Part shown: one piece after another, positions 17,660-56,762 of the stretch
Numbering within the stretch: the first letter of the stretch is position 1
Layout of the letters: every line of letters starts with the position of its first letter
Source: Nitrospinota bacterium
Lineage (GTDB): Bacteria; Nitrospinota; Nitrospinia; UBA9942
Direction of reading: 5' to 3'
Assembly (NCBI GenBank): GCA_016194325.1
Contig: JACQBS010000051.1
Span: 7,855-71,854, forward strand
Length of the DNA: 64,000 nucleotides
The notes under the pieces: model-generated
Told to the model about the DNA's origin: nothing
What the model saw: only the letters and a program-made list of their open reading frames with translations
The model's database searches: none
Translations under genes and position numbers: made by a program

Positions 17660-18697
17660 ATGATTCGTAAATTATTACTTAAAACAGTGTCAGTGAATAG
17701 TGTCAGTGACAGGAAAAAAATACTAACATTGATACTTACACTTACACTTACACTGACACTGTCACTTGCATCAGCAAGTGATATGCTCCTCATCCCTGCC
17801 GGAGAATTTATTATGGGGAGCGGGGCTGTTCAGGGAACAGACCCTTACACTGACACTCACACTTTTAAAGAGGGGATTGACTATGGAGTGGATGAGATTC
17901 CACAGAGGAAGGTTTTTGTCAAAGACTTTTATATTGACAGATTTGAAGTAACAAATGCCGAATACAAAGAATATCTTAAATATCTCATTAAGAACAGGGT
18001 GAGGCTTCCATTTTATGAGGATATAGGTATCCCTATCCCGGAGGATTGGAGATATCTAAGAAGCAGTGTCAAAGAGTCAGAGAGTCAAAGTGTCAAAGTA
18101 AAAAATACTGATACTGACACTGACACTTATACTTTTAAAGAAGGCATGGAATATCATCCTGTAAGTGATGTGGATTGGTATATGGCAAATAGTTATTGTC
18201 AATGGAAAGGCAAGAGATTACCTACAGAAAATGAGTGGGAGAAGGCTGCAAGGGGGACAGACGGCAGGCTCTATCCATGGGGGAATGAAGAGAATAAAGG
18301 ATATGCGAATACCAGAAAAAGCAGTGTCAAAGAGTCAGAGAGTCAAAGTGTCAAAGTAAAAAATACTGACACTGACACTAACACTGACACTGGCACTGTG
18401 GCGGCAGGCTTTTTTAAAAAAGATGTTAGTCCTTATGGTGTCCATGATATGGGGGGGAATGTGGCTGAATGGACATCATCTTTATATCGTCCATATCCGG
18501 GAAGTCCTGTGGCAGAAAGAGAGGCATTTAAGAGAGAGTTCTATGTTGTCAGGGGCGGGTCCTATTTAATTAATGCCCATGAATCGGCAAGGGCATCGGC
18601 GAGATACTATATGCTCCCGACCCGTATGCCAAGGGCAGCAGATGCCTGGCATGGTGACGGGATGGTGGGGTTCAGATGTGCAAAAGATAAAGAATAG
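17660..18697 (+). CDS. Secreted FGE-sulfatase-fold protein carrying two in-frame hairpin-repeat insertions
   Basis: The leader is MIRKLLLKTVSVNSVSDRKKILTLILTLTLTLTLSLASA. FGE-family motifs: LLIPAGEFIMGS, RFEVTNAEYKEY, WYMANSYCQWKGKRLPTENEWEKAARGTDGRLYPWGN, YGVHDMGGNVAEWT, GFRCAKD. GGSYLINAHESARASARYY replaces the FGE motif GGS.LCH.SYC..YR, so both Cys are lost. The listed ORF start at 17513 is read-through of element 17537..17643. Confidence 0.8.
   Translation: MIRKLLLKTVSVNSVSDRKKILTLILTLTLTLTLSLASASDMLLIPAGEFIMGSGAVQGTDPYTDTHTFKEGIDYGVDEIPQRKVFVKDFYIDRFEVTNAEYKEYLKYLIKNRVRLPFYEDIGIPIPEDWRYLRSSVKESESQSVKVKNTDTDTDTYTFKEGMEYHPVSDVDWYMANSYCQWKGKRLPTENEWEKAARGTDGRLYPWGNEENKGYANTRKSSVKESESQSVKVKNTDTDTNTDTGTVAAGFFKKDVSPYGVHDMGGNVAEWTSSLYRPYPGSPVAEREAFKREFYVVRGGSYLINAHESARASARYYMLPTRMPRAADAWHGDGMVGFRCAKDKE
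18065..18136 (+). repeat. In-frame hairpin insertion 1 in FGE-like CDS (AGTCAAAG arm / A-loop / CTGACAC arm)
   Basis: Sequence: agtgtcaaagagtcagagagtcaaagtgtcaaag-taaaaaat-actgatactgacactgacacttatactttt. It is 72 nt (24 codons) and encodes SVKESESQSVKVKNTDTDTDTYTF. Confidence 0.85.
18323..18398 (+). repeat. In-frame hairpin insertion 2 in FGE-like CDS
   Basis: The left arm and loop (agcagtgtcaaagagtcagagagtcaaagtgtcaaagtaaaaaatactga) are identical to insertion 1, which lies 258 nt upstream. The right arm is actgacactgacactaacactgacactggcactg. It encodes SVKESESQSVKVKNTDTDTNTDTGT. Confidence 0.85.
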
Positions 18698-19160
18698 TAT
18701 CAAAGTGTCAGAGTATCAGAGTGTCAGAGTTTTTTACTTTGACACTATATAAAAGTGTCAGAGGTAATATGGAAGAGAAAAAGGGTTACAAAAAACTGAG
18801 GGTATGGGAAAAGGCACATCAACTTGCAATGGAAATTTATAATACTACTAAAATATTTCCAAAAGAAGAGTTGTATGGATTAACTTCACAGATTAGAAGA
18901 GCAGCGTTTTCAGTTCCTTTAAATATAGTAGAGGGACATGCAAGTATTAGCAAGAAAGAATTTTTGAATTTTCTTAATATGGCAAATAGGTCCCTTGTTG
19001 AGACAGAATATCTGTTAGAGATAGTGAGAGAATTAAGCTTTTTAAATGAACCCGAGTATCAAAGGTTAGAGAAAATACGCAGTGAAGTTGCAGTTATATT
19101 AAACGCTTTTCGAAAAAGTATCAAACTTTGATACTTTGACACTCTGACACTTTGACACTT
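18696..19160 (+). repeat. Inverted octamer-repeat arms bracketing the four-helix-bundle gene (gene-in-loop hairpin cassette)
   Basis: The left arm is agtatcaaagtgtcagagtatcagagtgtcagag (18696..18729), followed by the mini-hairpin ctttgacact/aagtgtcagag (18737..18762). The right arm ctttgatactttgacactctgacactttgacactt (19126..19160) overlaps the stop codon. Confidence 0.85.
18769..19131 (+). CDS. Four-helix-bundle protein (23S rRNA intervening-sequence protein family; Avd-like fold)
   Basis: MEEKKGYKKLRVWEKAHQLAMEIYNTTKIFPKEELYGLTSQIRRAAFSVPLNIVEGHASISKKEFLNFLNMANRSLVETEYLLEI matches the family pattern (L.VW.KA....iY..t..FPk.E.ygL.sQirRAa.S...NI.EG). The ORF opens at GTG 18721 in the repeat; ATG 18769 after GAGGT is preferred. 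Confidence 0.85.
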   Translation: MEEKKGYKKLRVWEKAHQLAMEIYNTTKIFPKEELYGLTSQIRRAAFSVPLNIVEGHASISKKEFLNFLNMANRSLVETEYLLEIVRELSFLNEPEYQRLEKIRSEVAVILNAFRKSIKL

Positions 19161-19168
19161 TAAAACTT

Positions 19169-22100
19169 ATGATTCGCAAATTGCTGCAAATATTACTATT
19201 TACACTGACACTGACACTGTCACTTTCCCCTGTGTTTGCTACGATCTCTACTGTTGACTCACAGGGTGGTGCGTATAGCTCTATTAAGCTCCAATCTGAT
19301 GGTAAGCCTGCGGTTGCCTACTTTGACCATAAAACCGGGGAGTTGAGGTATTCTTACTGGACAGCGAATGGGACAGTGAATCAATGGATTCGCACTGTCG
19401 TGGAAGAAAAAGGTGTAACAGGGTATGTCTCCCTATGGTTAGGCAGCGGAAATAAGCCCTACATAAGCTACTATCACAACATAAGTAAGAATAACAGCAC
19501 AGGCTCAGATATAAACGGTAAATACGGCAACCACATGGTAGGTGCACTCAAATATGCCTATTGTTCTACTACAACCTGTCTTACACCTGAGGACTGGACA
19601 AAGGTAACTGTGGCAGAGATTGGTCAATCACAAAACGGGCATACTGGAGGGTTTACATCCCTTGCCTTTGATTCGTCAGGAAATCCGAGGATAGCCTATT
19701 ATGACTTTTCTCATAAGATAGATGCCAATGACATAAAGAAAGGTGCATTAAAACTTGCCTATTGTGACAGTAATTGCAGCAGTAGTAGTAGCTGGTCAAT
19801 AAGCACAGTTGATACTGATGGCGGCAGGTCTGCCTCTATGGTTATAAATTCCAGCAATAAGGTGATGTTCAGCTATGATGCTGATGAAGTGCAGACAGTA
19901 AGGTATGCGGAAGGCTCACCCCCATTTTCATCATGGACTAAAGCGGATATAGATACAATTGTAAACACGAGTAATTTATTCAGGGATACATCAATAGCAA
20001 TTCATCCAACCACGGGGAAGCCGAGGCTTATATATCAATATCAAGGGCAGGCTGACTATGGAACAGGCGGTACTTGTAGTTCTTGTACCCGGTCTGTCAG
20101 CGATCGATATTATGGTTACAATACTCCCGGGATTATAACCCGTCGTGATGCATACTATGCCTATTGTGATGCTGCTGATTGCACAGTTTCTACAAACTGG
20201 ACAAAAAATGTTGTTTTAGAGAGTAATGAGAGATATTTGAGGGGATATACATCTTCAATTAAGGTTGGGAGTGACGGTCCAAAGATTGCGTATCATTACT
20301 GGGGGCATAGGGCAAATAGTGCTTATTCTATTGGGCTTACTCAGAACCTCCAATATGTTAACTGTACTACCGCGAATTGTTCAAGTAAGAACATCTCCAC
20401 TATTGATTCAACAGAGAACACAGGGCTTTATTCTTCCATTGCACTTGATTCCTCTAACAATCCTTTGATTTCTTATTACGATTATGATTCAAACCAATTA
20501 AAGCTTTACCATCCGACAAACTCTTATACTGATGCTGGTATTACAGCAGATACCCGTGCAAGCGATACATCCAATGGAGGCACAGGACTACAGAGTGGGG
20601 ATAGCTTCAAAATCCTCTTTTCAGGTGCTACTAATGGAGCAGCATGCTCTATTACTACTGCTAATATAGACAGTATCCTCAAACTCTCAAATGGTCATTC
20701 CTGGGTATGCTCGGGGAGCAGTATAACAGCTACATGGAGTAACACCTACAATACAAACGATACACTAACAATCACGGTTACTTCCGGCACAGGTGGCTGT
20801 GTGCCTACAGTGGAGGTTGGGGATAGGGTATCTCTGAATGGAACCTGTATATTAGATGGGAGTGGTAATCCTATTATTTTACAGACAGAGATAAGGGGTA
20901 GCACCGGAGTCAAGGTTCCAACCGGCGCTGTAGCATATTGGAAGATGGATGAAGGTGCGAAGCTTACTGCCTGGGACAGTGTAGGTCCACATAATGCATC
21001 TTTGAACAATGGTGTTACATGGACAACAGGTCTTAGTGGCTCTGGACTCTCTCTTGATGGCAGTGATGACTATCTGATTGTCCCCGGAAACCCTGTTGAT
21101 TTAGATATTAAAGGGGGGAAGATTACCATTGAGGCATGGCTCAAGCCGAATAATTTATTTAGCACAAATTATACTGTCCTCAGTAAAGAGAATAGTTATG
21201 CAATGACATCAAATGGTCAGTGTGCCATAGAAACATCCGATACAGGAACAACATGGGCATGGTATGGGGGAGCGAGTATGAGCAGATTGCAAAGAAATTA
21301 TTCAGGAAATAAGGATATATGGAGACAGGTTGTCTGCACATACGATGGAACAACACAGAAGGTTTATATAGATGGCATCTTTGATGGAAGTCTATCACGG
21401 ACAGGAACTGTAAGCGCCTCAAATTATCCTTTTGTAATGGGGAGGAGGGAACTGTCAACATGGCCTACGAACAGAGGATATGATAGTAATGGTTGTCCTG
21501 GTACCGTCAGCGGTTGCAGTGGTGAAAACTACTGGGGGACAAATTATTACAATGGGAAAATGGATGAGGTTGTTATATATAATACTGCACTTTCACAGAC
21601 TGAAATTTTAAATCGTTTCAGCTCATTACCTGCCCAGTTTGAGAGGGCAGATGCAAATGATACATCTATGAGTGGCTATGGGCTTCAGGCAGGGGATACT
21701 ATAGCAATAAGGTTCACGAATGAGACAAATGCCCCTACAATAAATGCAGGAAATATAAATACAGTCCTCTCAGTTACTGGAAAGACATGGAAGGATGGGA
21801 GTGGAAATATAGGTAGTGCAGTATGGAGTCAAACAAGATTCACTAATGATACACTATTAATCACATTAAGCACAGCAACCAGTGCCCCCACAGTTGCAAC
21901 AGGAGATATAATAACCCTATCGGGAGGAATAATAAAAGAGAAAACCGGGATCAACTCTATTACAGGCTCCACTAAAATCAGGGGAAGTTATGATTTGAAT
22001 GGTGCTGTTGCATACTGGAATCTTGACGAGAGCAGCGGGGATCCATCAGACAGTGTCGGGCAGTATAATACCGGGACACTTGCTTGTGTTGGTACGGGTT

Positions 22101-36403: not shown

Positions 36404-36439
36404 GAGAAGAAAATTGGAAATTCTTATAGGAGGATTACC

Positions 36440-39400
36440 ATGAACAGAAAAGAAATAGTGTTAGTGAATAGTGTCAGTGTCAGAAAGAAAATGCTTACAC
36501 TTACACTTACACTTACACTTACACTAATGCTTTCAGTTTATGCCTTTCCATGGAGTGAGCCGGTTATTATAGACTCAGGACCTTTCAATGCCTACAGGAC
36601 TGATATTGCATTTGACTCCAGGGGTAATGCCATAAGTGTATTTGAACAGAAGAGTGGTGATTTCTATAGAATATTTGCTAACAGATATGTCAATGGCAAG
36701 GGTTGGCAGGGGACGGTTACAATAGATGCTAATAGCGGTGATGCCTATAGGGCTCAGGTGGCATTAGATAAAGAAGGGAATGCTATGGCAGTATTCAAAC
36801 AAGCAAACAGGGTCTTTGCCAACCGATATATTTATAATGAGGGTTGGCAGGGGACTGTCCCTATTGATAATGGCACAGGTAATGTCGATGGGCAGGATAT
36901 AGTCTTTGACAGTGAGGGGAATGCTGCTGCAGTCTTTGAGGAGTATAATGGTAAGGAATTTGGAATATATGTAAATCTCTATTCTTCTACTGACACTAAT
37001 ACTAACACTGACACTTCTAAAAGTAGCTGGTCTGGGGCTTTCCGGATAGATACTGGTCATGGTAATGCCTTTTTCCCATATCCACTATTTGATGACAAAG
37101 GTAATCTTTATGTAATTTATTATAAGGAAGAGTCCAGTGGGCTGGAGGTTTATGTCAGCCGGTTACAGAAGCCAGAAGTTAGAAGCCAGAAGTTAGAAGC
37201 CAGAAGTCAGAAGATAACTTATGGAAACATAGTACACAAGAAAGAGAAATGGGTTGAAAAGAAAAGTGAAATAGGGAGAGGAATTAAGTCTGTATATAAT
37301 CCCATGTTTTTAAGTGAGCTCAAAAAGAGGATATATTCGGGGAACTACTCCTACTCCCGCTGGGAGACCCCTTCAAAAATAGATTCAAGGTTCAGAGATG
37401 CATACAGACCAACCCTTCTTGCTAATGGGAATGGAGAGGTAACTGCACTATTTGTAAAATGGGATGGCGAATATTTAAGTGGCTATATGGTTAGCCACAG
37501 AAATGGTAAATGGGGCAAAATAGAGGAGATTGATGCAGGGAAGGGTGATGTGGAGCATATAAGAGGTGCAGTAAATTTCAAAGGTGAAATGGCAGTCGTA
37601 TTTACACAGTGGGTGGATGATAAACAAGGGGCAAGGGGCAAGGGGCAAGGGGCAAGGGGTAATGAAAATTTAAGGATACATGCAAGGATATATTCCCCCT
37701 TAACAAAGGGGGATAGGGGGTTGTCTGGCTGGGGGGAGGCTAAAATCATAGACGGAGGTAAAAAAGATGCCTACAATCCAAGTATTATATTTACCAATAG
37801 TGGTGAAATTATTGCTGTCTGGTGTCAGTGGGAGAAAGCGAATGTTAAGTCATATACAAATATTTACAGAAATGGAATAGGGTGGGGAAATGCAGAACGG
37901 CTTGAGAATAAAGAGGGTGAGACCTGTGGTGTAAGGATTGCATCAGGATCGGATGGTAAGGTCATTGCTATATTTGAGCAGGATGGTGTTAATTCAGAAG
38001 CCAGAAGCCAGAAGATAGAAGTAGTAGCCGTTTCTGACGGCGATAAAGCAAGAAGCCTGCCCCTGCATGATGTAAGCAGGGGAATAAACAGGATATTTGC
38101 AGTGGAATTTAAAAACACTGACACTGTCACTAACACGGACACTTATACCGTAAGAAAGCTTACCAGTGGAGATAGGGAGGATTATTATGCGGAGTTCAGT
38201 CCTGATGGAAAAATGATTGTCTTTGTTTCAAAACATGGAAAATATTCTAATCTCTATATTATGGATGCGGATGGAAAGAACATGAGACAATTAACTTCCG
38301 GTGATGTAACTGATACAGCCCCTGTTTTTACACCTGATGGAGGAAAGATTATCTTTGCCTCAAACAGGATTGCTGAAGGATGGGATATCTGGTCTGTCCG
38401 CCCCGATGGCTCTGAGCTTACCCGTATTACAAAATGGAGCAGAAACGAATACTCTCCACATCCCACATCTGATGGTAAAGGTGTGCTCTATGTCTCTACT
38501 GCAGGTGGTGACCATGCCATCTGGAGTATGGATATAAATGGAGATAATCCGAGACGATTAACCTCAGGAGGAACAGGTGATTGGTTCCCTGCAATGAATC
38601 CGAATGGTAGAGAAATTGTCTTTGTAAGCACGAGGCTGGGATATGGCGATATATGGACGATAGATCCGGTGGAAAAGAAATATCATAGATTGACCTATTC
38701 TGACCTGCCAGAGTTTTCACCGGCATGGAGCCCTGATGGCTCAAAGATTGCCTATGTGACTAACAAAGGTGGGGAATTTGATATCTGGATTATGGATAGA
38801 GACGGAAAAAATAAGAAGAGGCTGACAAAAGGGATATCAGATAGAAATTGGGGAAATAGGTTCTCGGCGATTAAGATAATGGAGACCGCCGGGTATTATC
38901 ATCTCTCATGGCATCCTGACGGGACAAAAATCCTTTTTACAGAATGGGGGGATAATGAAAAAGAGAGCTGCATTTCAATACTTGATTTTGATAAGGCTAT
39001 TATAGATAGATTGGAAGCAGATGGAACATCTATCCCAGAGTATACCTTGATTGGAGAGGGGGAACTGACAAAAGGCGAATGGGAGGATTTTGCTCCCTCA
39101 TTTAGTCCTGATGGTATATCCCTCACCTTTTCATCCAACAGGAGCGGTAACTGGAATATATGGAGTATGGAATTTAATGGAGAAAACTTAAGGCAGCTTA
39201 CGGATGAGAAGGCTGATGCTCTTGCCCCTGTCTTCAGTCCCGACGGCAAAGAAATAGCCTTTTTGAGAAGCCAGAAGCCAGAAGTCAGAAGCCAGAAGGA
39301 TGAAACAAATTTTGAAAATCGTCAATCTTCAATCGTCAATCTTCAATATGATTTGTGGCTAATGAAAAGTGATGGGAGTGGTGCGAGGCAGGTTACAAAA

Positions 39401-39985: not shown

Positions 39986-39990
39986 TAATT

Positions 39991-40073
39991 AGTGCAGAGT
40001 ATCAAAGTATCAAAGAGTCAAAGTATCATAGATTAAAGACTTTGACACTCTGACACTTTGACACTTTGACTCT
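39991..40073 (+). repeat. Intergenic octamer-unit hairpin (AGTCAAAG/CTTTGACA) between TolB-like genes 1 and 2
   Basis: Left arm agtgcagagtatcaaagtatcaaagagtcaaagtatca; 9-nt loop; right arm gactttgacactctgacactttgacactttgactct. It starts 6 nt after stop 39985 and ends 16 nt before ATG 40089. No T-tract. Confidence 0.85.
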
Positions 40074-40088
40074 ATAAGGGGGTTTACT

Positions 40089-42122
40089 ATGAATATAAAA
40101 AAACTGACACTCACACTCACACTGACACTCACACTCACACTGACACTCACACTGGCATATGCGCAGGAGCTTCCCTATACTGTCAGGAATATTACCGATG
40201 GAGAGAGAATAGATTTTCATCCGGAATTCAGCCCTGATGGGAATGAGCTCGTATTTGCCTCTAAAACAGAGATAAGCGAAGATGATAAAAAGAAAGAGTT
40301 TTGGGGTACCAGTCCCTATTATGTGAACTTATGGCTCATGAACTCAGACGGAAGGAACAAACGGCAGTTGACCACTGATAAAGCAATAGATTGTTATCCA
40401 TCGTTTACCACTGATGGAGAAAAGGTTCTTTTTGTCTCCAACAGGGGTGGGCAGTGGGATATCTGGTCTATAAAAAAAGATGGCTCAGGACTTACCCGTC
40501 TTACAAATAATACTGATAAAGATTACTCGCCAAAGGTAACACCGGATGGTAAACATATTCTATTCTTCAGCACACCAACATCAAGTGAAGTTGGTTATAT
40601 TACAGAAAGTGTATGGATTATGGATATGGATGGAAAGAATGCAAAGAGATTGACCTCCGGAGGCAAGGGGGATTGGTATCCCTCTATGAACCCTGATGGT
40701 AAGGAAATTATATTTGCAAGCATGCGGCTTATAGGTGGCAGTCTCTGGACAATAGATAGGGAAGGAAAGAATTACAGGAGATTGACCTATGGAAAGGTGC
40801 TGGAGTTTTTTCCCAACTGGAGTCCTGATGGGGAAAAAATCGCCTATGTTTCAAGAAGGGAGCATGCCTCCTTTGATACTGTAGGCGATACCGAGAAAGA
40901 CCCGCTTGAAATCTGGATTATGGACAGAGACGGAAATAATAAAAGGCAATTAACAAAAAATATATCAGGGGGTATATGGGATTCAAGATTCAACTTAAGA
41001 AAACCCCTTGATTTTATCAGTTATTATCATTTGTCATGGCACCCTGACGGCACAAAGATTGCTCTTACTACATGGGATAGAGGACAAAAGGGTAGCTATA
41101 TCAGTGTAATTGAGTTCGGCAGAGATACTTTAAATAAATTGCCTGCCTTAAAAAACGATACACTTCCTCAATATACTTTGATTGGAGAAAGGGAGCTTAC
41201 TGCCGGTGAGTGGGAGGATTTCGGTCCCTCCTTCAGTCCTGATGGTAATACGATAGCCTTTTCATCAAACAGGTCGGGTAATTGGGATATCTGGAGTATA
41301 GGGGCTGATGGTGAGGGAGTGAAGCAACTTACAAAAAATCCATCCACAGAAATTGCCCCTGTCTTCAGTCCTGATGGTAAAGAGATAGCCTACCTCAAAG
41401 AGGCAAATCCAAAATCCGAAATCAGAAATCCGAAATATAATATGTGGATAATGAAAAGCAACGGGGAGGAGGCACGAGAGGTTACAGGAGCGATTCCTGT
41501 TCTATCTTATCCTGCATGGCATCCTGCTGGTAATGAGATTGCCTTTATATCAAAAGGGGATGAGGGAATTGGAATATGGGTTTACAATGTCATTCAACAA
41601 AAGAGCAAAAAGGTAGCTACTATATGGAATAGCGAAAGAGAACAAGAGGCAAGAATACGTGCAGGGGAGGCTTTAGCCTCCCAAAGAGGCAAAAGGTATT
41701 ATCCCTTTAATGAGCTATTCCTCTACCGAATAGATTATAATAATAAAGGAGATAAAATTACCTTTGAGTCAAATCTTTCTGGTAATGTAGAAATATGGGT
41801 AATGAACAGTGATGGAAGGGATATGAGTAAGGTTACAACAGGGAGTAGTCCGCACTGGAATCCTGTATGGAGTCCTGATGGAAATAGAATAGCTTATGCA
41901 ACAGAGAAACTTGCTTCAAACTTAGGGCCTCCTTTTTGGCCAGATAATAATTATAATATCTGGCTGGCTGATATGAGTACAGGAAAAGAAGAGGCACTTA
42001 CAGCAGAGGAGCAAACCGATTGGAATCCTGCATGGAGCCCGGACGGAAAAAGAATCGCATATGTAACCAACAGGTCAGGTGATTTTAAACATTTCAGTAT
42101 ATGGCTGTTGTATTTGAAATAG
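40089..42122 (+). CDS. Secreted TolB-like PD40 beta-propeller repeat protein (about 12 blades)
   Basis: The signal peptide MNIKKLTLTLTLTLTLTLTLTLAYA is encoded by (CTGACACTCACACTCACA)3. It has about 12 blades with FSPDG/WSPDG...I.F.SNRSG.WDIW. The tail is NRSGDFKHFSIWLLYLK. Confidence 0.85.
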   Translation: MNIKKLTLTLTLTLTLTLTLTLAYAQELPYTVRNITDGERIDFHPEFSPDGNELVFASKTEISEDDKKKEFWGTSPYYVNLWLMNSDGRNKRQLTTDKAIDCYPSFTTDGEKVLFVSNRGGQWDIWSIKKDGSGLTRLTNNTDKDYSPKVTPDGKHILFFSTPTSSEVGYITESVWIMDMDGKNAKRLTSGGKGDWYPSMNPDGKEIIFASMRLIGGSLWTIDREGKNYRRLTYGKVLEFFPNWSPDGEKIAYVSRREHASFDTVGDTEKDPLEIWIMDRDGNNKRQLTKNISGGIWDSRFNLRKPLDFISYYHLSWHPDGTKIALTTWDRGQKGSYISVIEFGRDTLNKLPALKNDTLPQYTLIGERELTAGEWEDFGPSFSPDGNTIAFSSNRSGNWDIWSIGADGEGVKQLTKNPSTEIAPVFSPDGKEIAYLKEANPKSEIRNPKYNMWIMKSNGEEAREVTGAIPVLSYPAWHPAGNEIAFISKGDEGIGIWVYNVIQQKSKKVATIWNSEREQEARIRAGEALASQRGKRYYPFNELFLYRIDYNNKGDKITFESNLSGNVEIWVMNSDGRDMSKVTTGSSPHWNPVWSPDGNRIAYATEKLASNLGPPFWPDNNYNIWLADMSTGKEEALTAEEQTDWNPAWSPDGKRIAYVTNRSGDFKHFSIWLLYLK

Positions 42123-42135: not shown

Positions 42136-44403
42136 ATGAACAGAAAAAAAATAGTGTCAGTGAACAGTGTCAGTGTCAGTAAAAAAAACAGTGTTAGCAA
42201 AAGGATACTAATACTGATACTAATACTGACACTAACACTGACACTTGAAGATGCCTTTGCGGACTCAAAGGGGAGACCCGACCACATGTCAAAGGAGATA
42301 ATAAAGACTAAAGAAGTAGTCCCTGTTCCTCCCGATATTCAGGTGCCTTACTCGGTCAAGAGGATTAGTGACGGCAGTTCCATTGATTACCATCCGGAGT
42401 TTAGCCATGATGGAAAACAGATTGTATTTATTAGAAAAATAGATAATGATGAAAATATGAAAAAGGGGGAATTCTGGCACAAGACACCTTATTCCCTGAA
42501 TCTATGGCTCATGGATTCAGATGGCAATAACAGAAGACAGTTAACATCAGGGGATGTGATGGACTTTGCTCCAAGGTTTACACCTGATGGAAAAAGGGTC
42601 ATTTTTGTCTCCAATCGCAGGGATGGCAGATGGGATATATGGTCAATAGATATTGATGGTTCAAACCTTAACAGAATTACAGAGACAGAAGGGAATACAG
42701 GGCTATGGGAAAGGTCACACTATCCTTTCCCTACGCCAGATGGTAAGGAGATGATTTTCGTAATCTATAAAAAATCCCACGGAAGTGTATGGCTTATGGA
42801 TATGAAAAGCAGAAATATAAGAAGAATAACTTCAGGGGGATTTGGAGATGACTTTCCGATGATGTCCCCTGATGGTAAAGAGATTGTCTTCAAAAGCACG
42901 AGACAGGGAAATGGAGATGTATGGTCAATAGATAGAACAGGAAAAAATTACAAAAGATTGACCTATGAGGATTACCCGGAATTTTACCCTGCATGGAGTC
43001 CGGATGGGACTAAAATATCCTATGTCACCAACAAAGGGGGTATCTTTGATATATGGATAATGAATAGGGATGGTAAACACAAAAAGAAGCTGACAAAATT
43101 CCTCTCGCAGGGGGCATGGGGAAAAAGGTTTGATTATAACGACCTTGTAGAGACCGGATATTATCATGTCTCATGGCATCCGGATGGAACAAAGCTTGCC
43201 CTGACCATCTGGGATCCTGATAAAAAAGAAAGTTATTTGACAACACTCGACTTTGGAAAGGATATTGGCAGGGTAATGGATAGCCTGCCTGATGAAAAGG
43301 AGACCCTTCCTGATTACACCCTTATTGGAGAGAAAGATATTACCGGCGGTGGAAGCTGGGATGATTTTGGACCATCTTTCAGCCCCGATGGAAAAACAAT
43401 AGCCTTTGCTTCTAATAGAAAGGGGAACTGGGATATCTGGAGTATCAGCGCAGAGGGTGAGGGATTGAAACAGATGACGGAGGACACTGGTAGTGAGCTT
43501 GCCCCCGTATTCAGTCCTGATGGTAAAGAGATAGCATTTTTAAAAGAAATTGGACAGGATATACAGGATGGACAGGAAAAAAATATAAATCCAGTAAATC
43601 CTGTTAATCCTGTCAAAAAATACTATTCATTATGGCTCATGAATAGTGATGGGAGTGGTGCAAGGCAGATTACTGAGGGTATTAAGGCTATATCTTATCC
43701 TGCATGGAATCCAGATAGTAAAGAGATTGCCTTTGTAGCAAAAGGAGATAAAGGTCCTGAGATACAATTAATCCCCCTTAATAAAGGGGGGCAGGAGGTT
43801 GTTACTGTGAGCCGTGTTATTTCTATATGGGACACAGAGAAGCCTAATCCTTCTATGTTTCCTTTTGCAAAGGATACAAAGGATGAGGAGTTTACTCCTG
43901 AGGAAATGGCAAAGATGAAAAAACTATTCCCGAATGCAAAAGTCGGGATGGGTGGATTGACCCCCTTTACAAAGGGTGAAACCATAGATGTTCCTTATCC
44001 ATTGAAAGAGTTTCTCTACCGTGTAGATTATAATGCCGCAGGTGACAAAATCATATTTGAGTCTAATAAAAGCGGGAATATAGATATATGGTCGGTAAAA
44101 AAAGATGGGACAGAGATGACTCGTATTACAAAAGAAAGTGGACCGCATCTAAATCCTGTCTTTAGCCCTGATAATAAAAGAATCGCCTATGCCCGCAGAA
44201 AATTGGAGTTAAGCTCATATAATGAAGTAAATTATAACATCTGGGTTGCCGATGCGCATACCGGTGAAGAAATGCCTATTAACGGTGAGGAGCAGACAGA
44301 CTGGAATCCTGCATGGAGTCCGGATGGAAAAAAAATCGCCTATGTTACTAATCGTTCAGGGGAATTTAAGCATTATAATATATGGATGCTGTATTTAAAA
44401 TAG
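42136..44403 (+). CDS. Secreted TolB-like PD40 beta-propeller repeat protein
   Basis: The leader is MNRKKIVSVNSVSVSKKNSVSKRILILILILTLTLTLEDAFA, followed by PD40 blades throughout. The tail is NRSGEFKHYNIWMLYLK. Confidence 0.85.
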   Translation: MNRKKIVSVNSVSVSKKNSVSKRILILILILTLTLTLEDAFADSKGRPDHMSKEIIKTKEVVPVPPDIQVPYSVKRISDGSSIDYHPEFSHDGKQIVFIRKIDNDENMKKGEFWHKTPYSLNLWLMDSDGNNRRQLTSGDVMDFAPRFTPDGKRVIFVSNRRDGRWDIWSIDIDGSNLNRITETEGNTGLWERSHYPFPTPDGKEMIFVIYKKSHGSVWLMDMKSRNIRRITSGGFGDDFPMMSPDGKEIVFKSTRQGNGDVWSIDRTGKNYKRLTYEDYPEFYPAWSPDGTKISYVTNKGGIFDIWIMNRDGKHKKKLTKFLSQGAWGKRFDYNDLVETGYYHVSWHPDGTKLALTIWDPDKKESYLTTLDFGKDIGRVMDSLPDEKETLPDYTLIGEKDITGGGSWDDFGPSFSPDGKTIAFASNRKGNWDIWSISAEGEGLKQMTEDTGSELAPVFSPDGKEIAFLKEIGQDIQDGQEKNINPVNPVNPVKKYYSLWLMNSDGSGARQITEGIKAISYPAWNPDSKEIAFVAKGDKGPEIQLIPLNKGGQEVVTVSRVISIWDTEKPNPSMFPFAKDTKDEEFTPEEMAKMKKLFPNAKVGMGGLTPFTKGETIDVPYPLKEFLYRVDYNAAGDKIIFESNKSGNIDIWSVKKDGTEMTRITKESGPHLNPVFSPDNKRIAYARRKLELSSYNEVNYNIWVADAHTGEEMPINGEEQTDWNPAWSPDGKKIAYVTNRSGEFKHYNIWMLYLK
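43552..43615 (+). repeat. Complete hairpin element inserted in frame in TolB-like paralogue 3 (GGACAGGAT / AATCCTGT units)
   Basis: Sequence: ggacaggatatacaggatggacagga-aaaaaatat-aaatccagtaaatcctgttaatcctgtc. The arms are reverse-complementary. It encodes GQDIQDGQEKNINPVNPVNPV at the same loop that carries other repeats in the three paralogues. Confidence 0.9.
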
Positions 44404-44460
44404 TGAAAGTGTAAGTGAAAGTGTAAGTGAAAAGAGTTAACTTACACTTACACTTGCACT
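44402..44460 (+). repeat. Intergenic hexamer/heptamer hairpin (AGTGTAAGTGAAAG / CTTACACTTACA) between TolB-like genes 3 and 4
   Basis: Sequence: agtgaaagtgtaagtgaaagtgtaagtgaaaag-agttaa-cttacacttacacttgcact. It overlaps stop codon 44401..44403 and ends 13 nt before ATG 44474. Confidence 0.85.
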
Positions 44461-44473
44461 ATAAGGAGGAGCC

Positions 44474-46636
44474 ATGAATAGAAAAAAAATAGTGAGGGGG
44501 TTAGTCCCCCTTAATAAAGGGGGATTGAGGGGGTTGTTGATTTCACTTACACTTTCACTTACACTTACACATGCACTTGCACAGGAGCTTCCATATACTG
44601 TCACTGATATCACTAATGGAGATACTGTAGATTTTCACCCTGAGTTCAGTCCGGATGGGAAGTATATTGTTTTTTCCTCCATGGCAGTGGACGGCAGCTA
44701 TTTCACTGATATGCACTTATGGATTATGGATGCTGATGGAAAGAACAGGCGGCGGATAACATCAAAGAGTGCGATGTATCTTCAGCCGACCTTCACTCCT
44801 GATGGGGAAAGGATTGTTTTTATTTCCAATATAGAGGGCGGCTCATGGGATATCTGGTCAATTAAAATTAACGGTTCAGGGCTTACTCGCCTGACGAGAG
44901 ATAATCAGAAAGAATACTTCCCTATTGTAACATCCGATAGTAAAAGTCTTGTTTTTATAAGAAGATATGGTGGAACAGACAGCGTGTGGACCATGGATAT
45001 TGATGGAAACAACATGAGGAGATTGAGTTCCGGAGGGAATGGAGACTCCTTTCCGGCGATTTGCCATGATGGAAAGGAGATTATTTTTTCTACCACTCGG
45101 CTTGGTAACAGCAATCTCTGGACGATAGACAGAGAAGGGAAAGAGTATAAGAGACTTACCTTTGAAGATACAATAGAGTTTTCACCCTCATGCAGCCCAG
45201 ATGGAGCTAAGATTGCTTATGTTGCTATAGAGGGAGGGGCAAAGACTTACAGTAAGGCACGGAAGGGGTTTGAGTTCAAAGAGATATCCTACAGGGAAAG
45301 GTCCTTTGATATATGGCTAATCAACAGAGATGGAAGTGGCAGAAGGCAGATTGCCAGAAATATATTTGAGGTAGGTCCAGGTATGAAGCTATTCAAGTCT
45401 GTAGATATTATAGAAGGAATCAACTACTACCACATCTCATGGCATCCCAGTGGTAAGAAGATTGCGTTGACCAGGTGGAATAAGGATAGACCGGGGAGTC
45501 GTATTAGCACTCTTGAATTTGATATGGACATTATTGAGAGACTGCCGGTTACAGAAACACCCGTTCCAGAGTATTCACTGCTCAGGGAAAAAGACCTCAC
45601 CGGTGGAAGTTGGGATGACCTTGCCCCGAGCTTTGCCCCTGATGGCAAAAGCATAGCCTTTGCCTCCAACAGGAGCGGCAACTGGGATATATGGAGACTT
45701 AGGATTGCGGATTGCGGATTGCGGATTGCGGATTGCAAATCAGAGTTTGATGATGCAAAGCTGGAACAGCTTACAAAAGGGGATGACTATGAGTTAGCAC
45801 CTGCATACAGCCCGGATGGGAAAGAGATAGCATTTTTGAGAAGACAGAAGCCTGCCCTGAGCAGAGCCGAAGGGACAGAAGACAGACTTCAATACGATAT
45901 ATGGCTCATGAATAGTGATGGGAGCAACGCAAGGCAAATTACAAAAGGTGTACCTGTTCTTTCCTATCCTGCATGGAATCCTGATGGGAAAGAGATTGTT
46001 TTTATATCGGAAGGGAATGGATATGCTCCAGAGATATGGGGATACAGCATCGCTGAAAGCAGCCTTAAAAAGATTACGGTCATAAAGGATGCTTCTGTCC
46101 TCGCCTCCAGATTAAACTTGTCCCCGCAAGCTTTAAGCGGGGATAATAAAACGAAGATTGGCCTCATCGCCGACCAGCGATATCCGGATGCCTCCAATCC
46201 TCTATCAATCGGTGCAGGCGGTATTTATCCTTATAATGAATTCCTTTATCGTATAAATTATAGCCCTCGCGGTGACAGAATCATCTTTGAATTGGATAGA
46301 AATGGCAGTGTAGGTATCTGGAATGTCAATAGTGATGGCAATAGTCTCGCCCGTGTTCTGACAGATGATTTACTCCGCTGGACTCCGACATTCAGTCCTG
46401 ACGGCAGAAAGATAGCCTATTCTAAAAAGGCTGATAAACAGTTTGCCCCGATATACTGGACAGATTACAATATCTGGATAACCGATGCTGAGAGCGGTGA
46501 AGAGATGAGGATTAACGGTGAAGAACAGATAGACTGGTTTCCCTCATGGAGTCCAGATGGAAGAAAAATCGCCTATGTTACTAATCGCTCAGGAGATTTT
46601 AAGCATTTTAATATATGGCTGCTGTATTTGAAATAG
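44474..46636 (+). CDS. Secreted TolB-like PD40 beta-propeller repeat protein
   Basis: The leader MNRKKIVRGLVPLNKGGLRGLLISLTLSLTLTHALA contains the G5/C5 palindrome element. PD40 blades follow. The tail is NRSGDFKHFNIWLLYLK. Confidence 0.85.
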   Translation: MNRKKIVRGLVPLNKGGLRGLLISLTLSLTLTHALAQELPYTVTDITNGDTVDFHPEFSPDGKYIVFSSMAVDGSYFTDMHLWIMDADGKNRRRITSKSAMYLQPTFTPDGERIVFISNIEGGSWDIWSIKINGSGLTRLTRDNQKEYFPIVTSDSKSLVFIRRYGGTDSVWTMDIDGNNMRRLSSGGNGDSFPAICHDGKEIIFSTTRLGNSNLWTIDREGKEYKRLTFEDTIEFSPSCSPDGAKIAYVAIEGGAKTYSKARKGFEFKEISYRERSFDIWLINRDGSGRRQIARNIFEVGPGMKLFKSVDIIEGINYYHISWHPSGKKIALTRWNKDRPGSRISTLEFDMDIIERLPVTETPVPEYSLLREKDLTGGSWDDLAPSFAPDGKSIAFASNRSGNWDIWRLRIADCGLRIADCKSEFDDAKLEQLTKGDDYELAPAYSPDGKEIAFLRRQKPALSRAEGTEDRLQYDIWLMNSDGSNARQITKGVPVLSYPAWNPDGKEIVFISEGNGYAPEIWGYSIAESSLKKITVIKDASVLASRLNLSPQALSGDNKTKIGLIADQRYPDASNPLSIGAGGIYPYNEFLYRINYSPRGDRIIFELDRNGSVGIWNVNSDGNSLARVLTDDLLRWTPTFSPDGRKIAYSKKADKQFAPIYWTDYNIWITDAESGEEMRINGEEQIDWFPSWSPDGRKIAYVTNRSGDFKHFNIWLLYLK
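45702..45736 (+). repeat. In-frame perfect (GGATTGC)5 heptamer tandem repeat
   Basis: ggattgc x5 (35 nt) encodes LRIADCGLRIADC. It replaces the SxxxDGEG turn that is conserved in the other three paralogues (NWDIWSIGADGEGVKQLT). Confidence 0.95.
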
Positions 46637-46649: not shown

Positions 46650-47607
<958 letters not shown>

Positions 47608-47618
<11 letters not shown>

Positions 47619-48510
47619 CAAAAGTGTCAGTGACAGTGTCAGGAAAAAAATACTTACAGTTGTATTGACACTTACACTTACACTACCAATTGTTGTTAAT
47701 GCGGAAGAGGGAAAGGATGCAGAAGCACCTATAGAAATGGTCTTCGTTAAAGGGGGTTGTTTCCAGATGGGTGACCCCTTTGGAGATGGGGAGAATGATG
47801 AAGTGCCAGTCCATGAGGTTTGCGTGAATGATTTTTATATCGGCAAGTATGAAGTGACAGTAGAAGAGTTTGGAAAGTTTGTGAAAGAGACAGGTTACAG
47901 CACTGATGCAGAAAAAATGGGCGGTTGTTTTGGAAAGGTTGGTTACAAGTGGAGAAAAAGAAAGGATTTTAACTGGAGTAAGGTGGATTTCCCTCAGACA
48001 GATAGACACCCCGCAGTTTGTATAAGCTATAATGATGCAAATGAATTTATGAAATGGCTGAATAAAAAATTTGTGGTGAGCAAAACGAATTCATCGGGTG
48101 GTAAATACCGTCTGCCTACAGAGGCTGAATGGGAATATGCAGAGAGGAGCGGCGGTAAGGCGGAAAAATGGGCAGGGACAAATAACGAGTCGGAGGTTTC
48201 GGATTATGTATGGTATGATAAAAATTCCGGAGGTAAAACGCATCCTGTGGGTCAGAAAAAACCCAACGGCTTGGGTTTATACGATATGAGCGGCAATGTA
48301 TGGGAGTGGGTAGAGGATTGGTATGAAGTTGATTATTATGATAAAACTCCTAAAACCAATCCGTTAAATGCGAAGCCCAGCCATGCAAAGTCAATGCGCA
48401 GTGGTCCATGGAGCGTTCCTTTGCATGCAGTAAGGGTCTTTTATCGCGGCAGCGATATACCATATAGTATATGCGACGGACTCGGTTTTCGGGTTGCAAA
48501 GACCCCTTGA
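47608..48510 (+). CDS. Secreted FGE-sulfatase-fold protein (second subfamily)
   Basis: The leader is MQDDKSVSDSVRKKILTVVLTLTLTLPIVVNA. Motifs: MVFVKGGCFQMGD, FYIGKYEVTVEEFGKFVKETGY, HPAVCISYNDANEFMKWLN, YRLPTEAEWEYAERSGG, GLYDMSGNVWEWVEDWY, GFRVAKTP. The start overlaps the upstream stop by 11 nt; the listed ORF start at 47497 is out-of-frame read-through of the upstream gene. Confidence 0.8.
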
Positions 48511-48627
48511 AGGATTATAAAAATAATGGAACACGAATTACACGAAAAAGGTGTCAGTGAACAGTGTCAGTGTCAGAAAAAATACTTACATATTCCCCCC
48601 TTAATAAAGGGGGTGAGGGGGTTGTTA

Positions 48628-49491
48628 ATGAGAAGGGTTGCACTCATACTTACACTCACACTTACACTTATTTCAGATAGTGTAAACGCTAAGGAATGCA
48701 CACTGCTGGAGCCTGAGGCACTGAAAAGGGCTATAGAAAATAAATCTATATATGAGATGATTATATTTGATGTTCGTCCGCGGTATACTCCTGACTCGAA
48801 GCGTAGGTTTGATCTTGAGACTAATGTGAAGCGTATCCCGTCGAGTCTCTGGGCGCCTCTTGAAAAGATTGAACTGGACCTGGTTGGTAAGGTGGAGGAA
48901 CTTATTGATAGGAATGTTATTCTGGTGGGGGAGAATACAGAGTCCGCAGAAAGTGTATGCAGGTTTATGATGAAAAAAGATTATGGAATTCGTAATATAT
49001 ATGTCTTAAAAGGGGGTATGGAGAAATGGGATGGTCCTATTAAAGATGATATTACAAAAGTTGAATGTGCGATGATTACCTCCAGAGAGTTGATGAATAT
49101 GATGAAATCTGGAAAAAATGTTGAGATAGTTGACAAACGTTTAGCAGATGAATATCATGAGGGACATATACCAGGTGCAGTATTACGACCTGGCGAAATG
49201 AGACAGCCTTCACTAAAATATCTTATAACAAAACGGGAATTGCGTATAAAAAGGGCGCGGGAGAATACTATCGTCGTCTATGTGTATGATAATGAAGTTC
49301 AAACCATGCTGGATTGTAAGTATGAAAAATATTTCTCACATCCTGCATGGTATCCTGATGGTAATAATGATAATAAGAAAGCAAAAAAAGATGTTTATGT
49401 GCTTAGAGGCGGAATGAAGGTATGGGAAGGAGAAGTAAAAAAAGATTATCTGGAAATATTGAAAAAGAGAGTTAAGGAGAAACTGAAATGA
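48628..49491 (+). CDS. Secreted tandem rhodanese-homology-domain protein lacking the active-site Cys
   Basis: The signal peptide is MRRVALILTLTLTLISDSVNA. There are two rhodanese-like units: IIFDVRP...ILVGENTESAES...VLKGGMEKW and VEIVDKRLADEYHEGHIPGAV...VVYVYDNEVQT...VLRGGMKVW. The positions of the catalytic C-x5-R loop carry no Cys. The ORF-track start at 48526 translates repeat elements. Confidence 0.7.
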   Translation: MRRVALILTLTLTLISDSVNAKECTLLEPEALKRAIENKSIYEMIIFDVRPRYTPDSKRRFDLETNVKRIPSSLWAPLEKIELDLVGKVEELIDRNVILVGENTESAESVCRFMMKKDYGIRNIYVLKGGMEKWDGPIKDDITKVECAMITSRELMNMMKSGKNVEIVDKRLADEYHEGHIPGAVLRPGEMRQPSLKYLITKRELRIKRARENTIVVYVYDNEVQTMLDCKYEKYFSHPAWYPDGNNDNKKAKKDVYVLRGGMKVWEGEVKKDYLEILKKRVKEKLK

Positions 49492-49494
49492 ATT

Positions 49495-49563
49495 AAGTGT
49501 AAGTGAACAGTGACAGTGTCAGTTAAAGGTCTTTTGCTGACACTAACACTAATCACTGACACT
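49495..49563 (+). repeat. Intergenic heptamer hairpin (GTGTCAG/CTGACAC) between the two rhodanese-like genes
   Basis: Sequence: aagtgtaagtgaacagtgacagtgtcagt-taaaggtcttttg-ctgacactaacactaatcactgacact. It starts 4 nt after stop 49491, and RBS AGGAGG follows at 49570. Confidence 0.85.
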
Positions 49564-49580
49564 TTATTAGGAGGTGCAAT

Positions 49581-56686: not shown

Positions 56687-56698
56687 TCCCAAAAAAAA

Positions 56699-56762
56699 GT
56701 GTAAGTGTAAGTGTAAGTTAAAGGAATCGTTTTTTTCTGACACTGACACTGACACTGACACT
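56699..56762 (+). repeat. Intergenic hexamer hairpin (GTGTAA)n / (CTGACA)n
   Basis: Sequence: agtgtaagtgtaagtgtaagt-taaaggaatcgttttttt-ctgacactgacactgacactgacact. The arms are complementary in 5 of 6 positions per unit. Confidence 0.9.

Follow-up and report, generated by a model that had tools for sequence, protein, structure and literature searches.

A dispersed palindromic repeat element as a probable source of exchangeable signal peptides in a groundwater Nitrospinota lineage

Within a 64,000-nucleotide stretch of DNA from a groundwater Nitrospinota (Nitrospinae) metagenome-assembled genome (MAG), hereafter referred to as the window, genes for unrelated proteins begin with the same leader cassette, in which short tandem repeats form the two arms of a hairpin and are read as a putative signal peptide. 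I consider it rather probable that a palindromic repeat element with dispersed copies has here been captured and serves as a swappable signal peptide. The window is part of a 74,240-bp contig (proteins MBI3583165-76), its G+C content is 41%, and every large open reading frame (ORF) is on the + strand; genes are named here by the position of their start codon. Pfam identifies PD40/TolB-like beta-propeller proteins at 36440, 40089, 42136 and 44474, FGE-sulfatase proteins at 16665/16704, 17660, 46650, 47608 and 50420, rhodanese proteins at 48628 and 49581, and multihaem cytochromes at 1606/1675, 4358, 5223/5250 and 11392, in agreement with the TolB-like, FGE-like and rhodanese-like labels given in an earlier note on this DNA. 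Tandem arrays were located with Tandem Repeats Finder (TRF), and their partner arms by an inverted-repeat search. Related contigs and metagenome loci carry L numbers, and three alignments are referred to, namely A1 (gene 17660 and its paralogues), A2 (leaders and untranslated copies) and A3 (FGE orthologues including the outgroup P0044).

The focal copy of the cassette is in the leader of gene 36440 (Table 1), whose start codon is also the one used for the NCBI protein MBI3583170.1 (1181 aa). It is composed of a 5' arm of the GTGTCAG family, an A-run and a 3' arm of the form (CTNACA)n, which together read SVNSVSV-(R/K)KK-(LT)n-AxA. The RKKM encoded by the loop places positive charges beside the hydrophobic core, and the c-region ends with VYA at 36544. 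The earlier note had claimed that this arrangement, made of micro-repeats, is common at the DNA level to unrelated secreted-protein genes, and arm, A-run and arm are indeed found at 36440, 42136, 17660 and 47608; the motifs GTGTCAGTG and ACACTNACACTNACACT have 27 and 23 matches, where 0.29 and 0 are expected, respectively. The upstream spill proposed for the rhodanese gene 48628 is also present (48551-48666): the cassette is interrupted by a nested second palindromic element, the G5/C5 palindrome at ~48590-48627, and the annotated start is inside the cassette. The variants reported at 44474 and 46650 could be located, as could the (LT)n h-regions at 11392, 19169 and 40089; the h-region array of 44474 (44541-44582) is 97% complementary to 44403-44432, and the 46650 leader is identical in L022, a contig of a sister MAG. 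The conserved ribosome-binding site (RBS) and start that had been described, GGAGGATTTACCATGAACAGAAAA, holds for the PD40 genes and for 46650, but 17660, 47608 (which begins 5 nt past the stop of an overlapping upstream gene) and 48628 use other starts. Similarly, the suggestion that the leader folds back on itself applies to 36440 (z of -3.9 against shuffles), 42136, 17660 and the 48540 region (z -2.8), more weakly to 47608, and not to 46650, which gives no structure signal (z -0.2). As a side observation, the start ATGATTCGYAAWTT (MIRK/NLL) is common to two FGE genes and the 5498-aa gene (16704, 17660, 19169), and TGGAAATTCTTAWAGGAGGA precedes both 11392 and 36440 (11360-11391 and 36410-36439).

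Judged from sequence, it is almost certain that the leader is translated to give the n- and h-regions of a signal peptide, as the earlier note had proposed. In all of the 31 leader alleles compared, which come from the window and from related contigs, the gene frame is open, with a stop in the +1 frame in 31 and in the +2 frame in 25; at 36440 the two other frames hold 5 and 1 stops, and its orthologues have leaders that stay open in frame until a conserved WS(E/S)PV(I/A)ID. The n-region of these 31 alleles has a net charge of +1 to +9 before the most hydrophobic segment, and the best 9-residue Kyte-Doolittle mean is 1.8-3.7 across leaders. Residues -3 and -1 mostly follow the pattern A/V/S-x-A (VYA, AFA, ASA, VNA, ALA, VWA, AYA and VFA, before conserved mature N-termini), with AYC in place of A-x-A in some 36440 orthologues. 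Lipoprotein and Tat signals were also considered and rejected, the focal leaders having neither a lipobox nor a twin-arginine motif.

The reading frame of the arrays depends on their context. All 10 signal peptides of the window that contain a CTNACA array use its frame 0, Leu-Thr, and the 5 copies in mature regions all use frame 1, Thr-Asp/Asn/His/Tyr; by my own Fisher calculation, such a split has a chance of about 1 in 3000. Relative to the 5' arm, the frame is LT (frame 0) in all four coding leaders and TD in an internal copy in L054, while the untranslated copies are distributed 3/3/3 over the three frames (n=9). The leader arrays vary mainly at the third, four-fold degenerate base of the Leu codon, where G, which pairs with the 5' arm, is found at 26% in leaders versus 69% in untranslated copies. 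This indicates that the peptide is under selection and that selection for pairing is relaxed, and the drift of pairing bases in leaders argues against a conserved regulatory RNA structure; selection appears to act on the reading frame, not on RNA pairing. Separately, the length of the A-run in the loop sets the frame of the 3' arm with respect to the 5' arm, giving LT in leaders, TD in mature loops and TGA stops in some untranslated copies (L020, L019 and L005 compared to the window leaders), and a one-base slip in this homopolymer would switch among the three states.

The element is also found, mostly untranslated, in other genomes. The exact 26-mer GTGTYAGTGAAYAGTGTCAGTGWCAG is present at 21 loci in 10 species-representative MAGs, labeled Nitrospinae/Nitrospinota, Nitrospirae, Deltaproteobacteria, Desantisbacteria, Deferribacteres and Verrucomicrobia, with a locus G+C of 0.33-0.53. 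At nearly all of these loci the hairpin is complete, with an A-rich loop between the first arm and a CTGACAC arm that is followed by TTTT, and it occupies a short gap between genes that may be on either strand. A stop codon is often only 0-8 nt away, and both orientations are seen; the sole coding leader among them is that of L002, an orthologue of 36440. In alignment A2, the consensus AAAAAGTGTCAGTGAATAGTGTCAGTGTCAG-AAAAAAATA-(CTNACA)n spans four leaders and the untranslated copies. Because the leaders match the untranslated element including its loop AAAAAAATA, the element contributes both the (LT)n core and the Lys/Arg residues of the n-region. A role for the cassette as a dedicated export tag or translation-control element, put forward in the earlier note, is not borne out, as the same element is mostly untranslated after stops in MAGs of several phyla, is also in-frame in mature protein regions, in a different, hydrophilic frame, and shares its architecture with many other families of repeat hairpins. 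The untranslated copies may act at the RNA level, in protection or processing of mRNA 3' ends. A scan of viral contigs for the 26-mer returned one match, without a partner arm and with no sign of phage origin, and a literature search for the motifs returned only unrelated primer or microRNA matches, none in a microbial context.

Whole cassettes differ between sister strains. L022, from the sister MAG GCA_016234205.1, is collinear with window positions 41486-51693 and 97-99.7% identical outside five segments, all of which are hairpin sites: the leader of 42136 (106 nt in the window and 142 nt in L022, which has an unrelated hairpin), the internal loop of 42136 (91 and 118 nt), the junction and leader of 44474 (110 and 136 nt), the internal site of 44474 (35 and 83 nt), and the rhodanese leader (150 and 124 nt). 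The three differences located fully within ORFs are of 36, 27 and 48 nt, all multiples of three. The mature proteins are near-identical while the leaders are wholly unlike, for example MNRKKIVSVNSVSVSKK...LTLTLTLEDAFA versus MNRKIRRQNIEDSMQYAV...LLTAYCLLPTVVFA. At 16 metagenome loci with orthologues or paralogues of 36440, at least 10 leader alleles were found, all from one vocabulary of repeat blocks (CTNACA, read LT; CTGCCTA, read LPTAYCL; TCATTGC, read HCSLLIAHC; CAGAAGN, read RSQKSEVRSQ; GTGTCAG, read SVNSVSV) that also serve elsewhere as hairpin arms. An LLVVSCWLFL(R/C)ASV core is likewise present both in a rhodanese allele (L024) and in the cytochrome gene 5250. The idea of the leader as an exchangeable module is therefore upheld, by different cassettes in the same leaders of sister strains with flanks ~95-99% identical.

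Four alleles of the rhodanese leader were identified, one of which is identical, copy numbers included, in 11 contigs from 11 samples, which argues against both rapid slippage-driven phase variation and an assembly artefact. Variation in unit copy number among relatives, which the earlier note had suggested looking for, was not seen in this allele, nor in (CTGCCTA), constant at four units in three alleles. At the junction between 36440 and 40089 (39982-40102), the order in the window is stop, hairpin, RBS, ATG and (LT)9, while in the sister contig L055 (1593-1674) it is stop, RBS, ATG, GTGTCAG arm, A-run and (LT)n (MNTNKIVSVKSVSVRKKIIHLLTLTL...AYA, then QELPYT); the flanks are 95-98% identical, and the two strains have homologous (LT)n arrays downstream. 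In the rhodanese leader, the allele of L024 retains the outer stem seen in L022 around a new inverted array at its centre. L052 and L053, which are 98-100% identical, differ in the central 78-nt segment of one in-ORF hairpin and have different hairpin families before the RBS. In both the window (48590) and L015, a GTGTCAG element holds the G5/C5 palindrome in its loop. Turnover looks centered on the hairpin apexes.

Similar slots are found inside mature proteins. The three internal repeat sites of the FGE gene 17660 (Table 1) are missing from all four paralogues. Across 25 FGE orthologues, the conserved blocks are nearly invariant, while the leader and three internal sites, following MGSG, PEDWRY and GYANTR, are hypervariable; the internal sites are filled with differing repeat-derived peptides, and the orthologues of 17660 possess other repeat leaders (A3). 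The outgroup P0044 has short loops at the internal hypervariable sites (A3). In the FGE orthologue of L054, from Hainich groundwater, the exact 26-mer cassette is present at both major internal sites, where it reads AVSVNSVSVSKKDSLTDTHTDTDT. The in-ORF copies keep the frame and are missing from paralogues or the outgroup, with length differences of 27, 36, 48 and 78 nt.

On the proposed reading, the cassette is a translated copy of a palindromic repeat, in which an A-rich loop separates two arms built from short tandem units (GTGTCAG... and ...CTGACAC). The ordinary site of this element is a short untranslated gap right past a stop codon, in either orientation, in the Nitrospinota lineage and in MAGs labeled as other phyla. 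In the Nitrospinota lineage, capture would take place where the start codon of the downstream gene is upstream of the hairpin or in its loop, as would often be the case, and the hairpin would then be read as protein. The 5' arm would give the polar SVNSVSV, the A-run Lys/Arg, and the C/A-rich arm, in one of its three frames, (Leu-Thr)n. Joined to the A-x-A region of the gene itself, these n- and h-regions would form an apparent Sec-type signal peptide, later cleaved. Since a cleaved signal peptide needs only charge followed by hydrophobicity, the leader site would tolerate such elements, and selection would filter only their frame. Whole cassettes are replaced between strains at fixed slots, which include leaders, two or three surface loops and post-stop junctions, often at the apex of an existing hairpin. 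From the alleles compared, the element seems tolerated, and is evidently used, by this lineage as n- and h-regions of cleavable signal peptides.

Several observations weigh against this proposal. No target-site duplications were recognized at the replaced segments, and no transposase or RAYT gene or domain is present among the ORFs of the window. About one third of the leaders have a repeat-encoded core without a partner arm, and the hairpin is therefore not obligatory. Pure (LT)n cores (40089, L035, L040) are weakly hydrophobic, with a Kyte-Doolittle mean of ~1.8 compared to 2.3-3.7 in other leaders. A search with the leader-consensus peptide against 5.8 billion proteins yielded 53 word-sharing candidates and no significant match, possibly owing to low-complexity filtering. 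Finally, all the sequences compared are metagenome assemblies, and the phylum labels of the MAGs hinge on binning.

The focal cassette is found in a window dotted with short tandem arrays of period 6-10, organized so that (unit)n and (reverse-complement unit)n flank a spacer; the units are of many kinds and include GTGTCAG, CACAGAGA, CACAGATAAA, GCAATGA, CAGAAGN, CACGAATAT and AGTATCAA. There are 195 inverted 9-mer pairs at most 160 nt apart, versus 48 +/- 8 in shuffles (4-fold), and 485 direct 9-mer pairs at 5-30 nt, versus 10.7 +/- 4.9 (~45-fold). Strong inverted repeats follow 12 of the 31 gene ends, versus none of 150 intragenic control positions. Some hairpins are fully upstream of an RBS (39995-40068, 49491-49568, 56697-56762); others span the start codon, with the 3' arm as hydrophobic core (16640-16763 for 16704, where the 3' arm encodes the h-region LLIAHCLSLIAY, and 4313-4452 for 4358), or are fully within an ORF (the focal cassette, 7143-7246, 60529-60628 and 1716-1825). 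By my own count, a tandem array encodes the hydrophobic core in ~16 of the ~22 window genes with an N-terminal signal or membrane anchor, and most leaders are better folded than shuffles (z -3.5 to -9.3).

Searching the whole window against Rfam gave no family match at gathering thresholds, and no rRNA. A terminator scan of positions 35600-52000 flagged no repeat hairpin as a G+C-rich stem with a short loop and a T-run; terminator-like traits are present, namely the position directly after stop codons and the TTTT(A) with which untranslated copies end. The 3' arm units CTGACA, TTGACA and ACTTTGAC look like -35 hexamers in tandem (40039-40070, 19125-19168, 51389-51442), which may be a coincidence, and promoter-like matches are found at 51399-51442, just upstream of 51446. 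In total, 53 promoter-like matches were counted, versus 41 +/- 6 in shuffles, not clearly in excess.

Table 1. Repeat arrays, hairpins and leaders of the window, with their positions; peptides are conceptual translations, and z values compare folding to shuffled sequences.
Feature	Position	Strand	Remarks
Shine-Dalgarno AGGAGG	36428..36433	+	6 nt before ATG 36440; direct sequence reading
Leader of PD40/TolB-like gene 36440, 35 codons, MNRKEIVLVNSVSVRKKMLTLTLTLTLTLMLSVYA	36440..36544	+	Predicted cleavage before FPW
5' arm, GTGTCAG family, GTGTTAGTGAATAGTGTCAGTGTCAG, read VLVNSVSV	36458..36483	+	Aligns with untranslated intergenic copies of other MAGs
A-rich loop AAAGAAAATG, read RKKM	36484..36493	+	Loop AAAAAAATA conserved in untranslated copies (A2)
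3' arm (CTTACA)5.3, read (Leu-Thr)n, predicted hydrophobic core	36494..36525	+	TRF 100% matches; frame 0
Leader of second PD40 gene, cassette as in 36440	42136..42261 (arms 42153-42180 and 42204-42245)	+	z -6.3
FGE-sulfatase leader, MIRKLLLK then cassette	17660..17776 (arm 17687-17712, array 17722-17770)	+	z -3.5
Second FGE-sulfatase leader, shorter cassette	47608..47703	+	z -1.95
Split cassette, rhodanese gene	48551..48690	+	5' arm 48551-48576; 3' arm 48643-48666, predicted h-region
Post-stop hairpin (44400-44462), then leader of 44474	44400..44582	+	Leader includes G5/C5 element
Leader of FGE gene 46650	46650..46790	+	(CAGAAGA)4.4 read RRQKTEDRRQ, (GCTTCTT)n, (CTNACA)n array
Untranslated hairpin, RBS, ATG 40089, solo (CTNACA)9	39995..40163 (hairpin 39995-40068)	+	Leader MNIKK(LT)9AYA
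(CTTACA)n array, predicted h-region of multihaem cytochrome gene 11392	11476..11511	+	
(CTGACA)n array, predicted h-region of 5498-aa gene 19169	19199..19222	+	
(GCAATGA)n/(TCATTGC)n hairpin, 5-9 nt past upstream stop	16640..16763	+	Start 16704 in loop; z -6.2
(CAGAAGT)4.6/(TGTCCTC)n hairpin leader, read MNRRQKSEVRSQKSDFMFSVLCLLSSVFCLLLII	60529..60628	+	Start codon in 5' arm; z -9.3
Inverted repeat in leader of gene 7131, 3' arm coding	7143..7246	+	z -5.3
(CACGGAG)/(TCTCTGTG) hairpin, start 4358 in loop	4313..4452	+	3' arm encodes LFLCASVSLWL
Untranslated copy of GTGTCAG element	49491..49568	.	From stop of 48628..49491 to 12 nt before 49581 RBS/start; z -4.7
Untranslated hairpin (AAGTGT)3.7/(CTGACA)4.3	56697..56762	.	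Between stop 56686 and start 56771
Solo 5' arm (AGTGCCAGTGAACAGTGTCAGTGTCAG)	3895..3921	+	15 nt past stop at 3879
CTNACA array, mature region of 17660, read YTDTH	17844..17861	+	Insertion relative to paralogues (A1)
In-frame hairpin of GTGTCAG family, FGE gene 17660, read SSVKESESQSVKVKNTDTDTDTYT	18065..18133	+	Slot hypervariable among orthologues
Second in-frame hairpin, FGE gene 17660, read ...KNTDTDTNTDTG	18323..18398	+	
CTNACA array, mature region of 36440, read TDTNTNTD	36989..37015	+	
CTNACA array, mature region of 36440, read NTDTVTNTDTY	38115..38147	+	
Inverted arms (CACAGATAAA family) around PDDEXK_3 gene 10926-11306	10908..11336	+	Just past stop codon
Inverted arms (AGTATCAAAGTGTCAG family) around 23S_rRNA_IVP gene 18721-19131	18696..19167	+	Just past stop codon

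Two of the hairpins possess a gene in their loop (Table 1), and ORF-less hairpins exist for both: with the same arms as the PDDEXK_3 element at 54092-54172 and 5152-5228, and with arms related to those of the 23S_rRNA_IVP element at 39995-40068 and 51354-51422. The IVP genes of L035 (823-1265), L038 (110-624) and L052 show the same hairpin-loop architecture, and in L053, where as in L052 the element follows an FGE stop, the IVP ORF of L052 is internally deleted and both arms are kept. In L054 (1355-1480), a PDDEXK_3 gene with the same CACAGAT arms follows the FGE gene, and this gene with its arms is found at different loci in two genomes. No ORF-bearing version of the exact GTGTCAG 26-mer element was found among the fetched loci, and only by analogy might this element be linked to IVP-type elements. 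As a side observation, the slot before the 36440 leader (35873-36403), compared in L035, L036, L038 and L041, is occupied by a Uma2 (PD-(D/E)XK-like) gene in some strains and by 23S_rRNA_IVP in others, with both in L038, so that small genes of the two families are gained and lost at this junction.

A more far-reaching interpretation is possible, which I hold only tentatively and regard as doubtful. The hairpins may be ORF-less derivatives of an unrecognized class of palindromic elements, full-length members of which would carry 23S_rRNA_IVP or PDDEXK_3 in the loop, and which would colonize hairpin apexes, post-stop positions and A-rich sites. Approximately 1 in 3 copies would then be a latent signal peptide, owing to how the genetic code maps the polar-coding 5' arm, the A-run and the C/A-rich 3' arm. 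Were this the case, the lineage would be creating and exchanging signal peptides from selfish hairpin DNA.

Another explanation for the repeats is that the arrays arise in place, by replication slippage and template switching between palindrome arms and without a mobile element, the likeness between sites reflecting a shared mutational process and gene conversion. The many unit families with one architecture, the changes centered on apexes, the solo arrays without partner arms and the large excess of direct 9-mers are all compatible with it, and Borg tandem repeats are described as able to arise independently and create new protein regions (PMC9879509). I nonetheless regard it as unlikely, because the irregular 26-mer (with its TGAAYA interruption) and loop are exact at 21 loci in 10 MAGs of differing GC, which local generation would not reproduce, and because genomes differ in the locus at which the PDDEXK_3 gene, with the same arms, is found. 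It also seems quite improbable that the hairpin is a dedicated cis-regulatory RNA at or near the start codon, tuning initiation or coupling translation to export. The folding of most leaders would be expected of such an RNA, as would the observation that each allele at a slot is again a hairpin despite its different sequence, and the position of the RBS and start in a loop (16704, 4358, L022 3049) or of the start codon in a stem (60530). This is at odds with the untranslated post-stop copies of other genomes, in either orientation, and with the copies within mature coding regions; in leaders the pairing decays, as described above, and a third of them have no partner arm, while 46650 and 47608 are weakly structured and no Rfam family is matched.

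The remaining explanations fare worse. Slippage in 7- or 8-nt units or in the A-run could switch secreted proteins on and off, making these leaders contingency loci as for the CTCTT repeats of opa (PMC3960869), and there are units in 5' coding regions that are not a multiple of three, such as (CAGAAGA)4.4, (TCATTGC)5 and (CTGCCTA)4, as well as a loop A-run that sets the frame of the 3' arm. I find this very unlikely, considering the constant copy numbers reported above for the rhodanese allele and for (CTGCCTA), the focal arm, a hexamer array unable to shift the frame, and the absence of any frameshifted allele save in one probably truncated contig, L042. I give equally little credence to the possibility that the repeats are untranslated, with true starts downstream and the cassette a 5' untranslated region (UTR) or intergenic element wrongly placed in ORFs. 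The element is untranslated elsewhere, 36440 has an internal Met just before its (LT)n, and the annotated start of 48628 is within the cassette; yet no usable signal peptide is found downstream of the arrays (40089 has only its (LT)9), 42136, 17660 and 47608 have no internal Met, and AGGAGG is 6 nt before the upstream ATG. Moreover, the frames are open and differ by context, and replacements keep them. Least credible of all is that short-read assemblers misjoined contigs at dispersed repeats, generating chimeric leaders: while all the data come from metagenome assemblies, with repeats that are short and dispersed, the same alleles recur in independent NCBI, ENA and JGI assemblies, the flanks are collinear, and every allele keeps the frame and a plausible n-h-c layout.

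REP/BIME/REPIN palindromes and terminator-like miniature inverted-repeat transposable elements are multi-copy, located just downstream of genes, and candidate stabilizers of mRNA 3' ends (overview in PMC2229807 and PMC10969869). The hairpins described here are, like REP/BIME/REPIN, imperfect multi-copy palindromes past genes in either orientation, but their arms are tandem micro-repeats of many unit families, they are frequently translated, no RAYT or transposase is present in the 64 kb, and a simple terminator scan does not flag them. The Rickettsia palindromic elements (RPEs) are the classic palindromic repeats found in-frame in protein-coding genes (PMC10969869). As with RPEs, a dispersed hairpin repeat with several families is both intergenic and in-frame in unrelated genes, and is translated within the host protein at permissive positions. 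In contrast, RPEs are ~150 bp long with a conserved peptide and are not inverted arrays of 6-10-nt units; they have not been reported as a source of signal peptides, nor as swapped for other families at one site between near-identical strains, and the context-dependent reading frame (LT versus TD) seen here is a further difference. In Neisseria opa, CTCTT coding repeats are located in the leader-peptide region (PMC3960869), and in both cases short tandem repeats are in the 5' coding region for the leader of an exported protein, export being presumed for the proteins described here. The opa repeats form one direct array, and frequent changes in its copy number shift the frame and give phase variation, whereas here there is an inverted partner, the focal unit is a hexamer, and the copy number is identical in 11 independent contigs.

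Heptamer TAACTGA direct repeats, with one indirect repeat in 170 sets, have been reported in cyanobacteria and Beggiatoaceae (MacGregor 2015, PMC4679880), and proposed to be protein-binding sites in 5' UTRs (PMC4679880). They resemble the arrays of the window in having 7-nt tandem units in intergenic DNA near start codons, and in a unit shared by distant phyla without an evident transfer mechanism, but they are direct arrays of another sequence and not translated leaders. The intervening sequences (IVS) of 23S rRNA are extended stem-loops cut by RNase III, sporadic in distribution, some with an uncharacterized 23S_rRNA_IVP ORF (bioRxiv 10.1101/2024.02.27.582315). Here also, long stems have an optional loop ORF (23S_rRNA_IVP or PDDEXK_3) and exist in ORF-less versions, and they are sporadic among strains, with different content at one site; unlike the IVS, they are found past the stops of protein genes and in ORFs, not in rRNA helices. 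Borg tandem repeats are fast-evolving, in-frame in genes, and add peptide segments, creating new disordered protein regions (PMC9879509); they are direct arrays of an archaeal extrachromosomal element, with no inverted partner and no reported signal-peptide role. None of the closest precedents (RPEs, the opa leader, REP-type palindromes and the cross-phylum heptamers) brings together arms of inverted micro-repeats, a role in signal peptides and the replacement of cassettes between strains.

Two further candidates were rejected. For an integron cassette array, suggested by the one-strand genes with a hairpin after each, the genes are too large (up to 5498 aa) and the hairpins are heterogeneous and found elsewhere between genes on either strand. 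For a diversity-generating retroelement, to which the Avd-like members of the IVP family might have pointed, the window ORFs scanned (all but the 5498-aa gene) contain no reverse transcriptase domain, and the changes are cassette swaps, not adenine-directed substitutions.

The capture of a palindromic repeat, if correct, would represent a possible source of new signal peptides, in which non-coding repeat DNA appears to become the presumed export signal of many unrelated proteins. The alternative leaders on near-identical mature proteins also constitute a comparison set for the minimal needs of a Sec signal, such as a bare (Leu-Thr)n core. In addition, as is shown by copies that are untranslated or lie in-frame within mature regions, annotation pipelines will mishandle start codons and domain boundaries in such genomes.

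Further repeats were noted in the window. The palindrome CCCCCTTAATAAAGGGGG..GAGGGGGTTGTT, the second dispersed one, is present at 43771-43806, 44493-44540, 47028-47075, 48590-48627 and ~37690-37711, and in L015 at ~3040-3075; within ORFs it is in-frame and reads roughly PLNKGG, and where it is nested in the GTGTCAG hairpin loop it supplies the ATG of 48628 together with a Shine-Dalgarno-like run of G. Another small palindrome, the third, is CTGCCCCTGCA-N8-GCAGGGGACAG, found at ~38060-38095, 45852-45886 and 50885-50915, and in L022 at 2093-2210; it is nested between (CAGAAGC)n arrays and translated in-frame, for example as SLPLHDVSRG and LAPAGSKQGTG. Perfect five-copy heptamer arrays are also present in ORFs, with (CAAGGGG)5 at 37625-37659 reading QGARGKGQGARG and (GGATTGC)5 at 45702-45736 reading LRIADCGLRIADC. 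The ORF of 5498 aa, with its putative (LT)n signal peptide, spans 19169-35665, and a WD40 protein is encoded at 51732-53300, its repeats being recognizable in the DNA as a 126-nt tandem array of 12 copies with ~72% matches.

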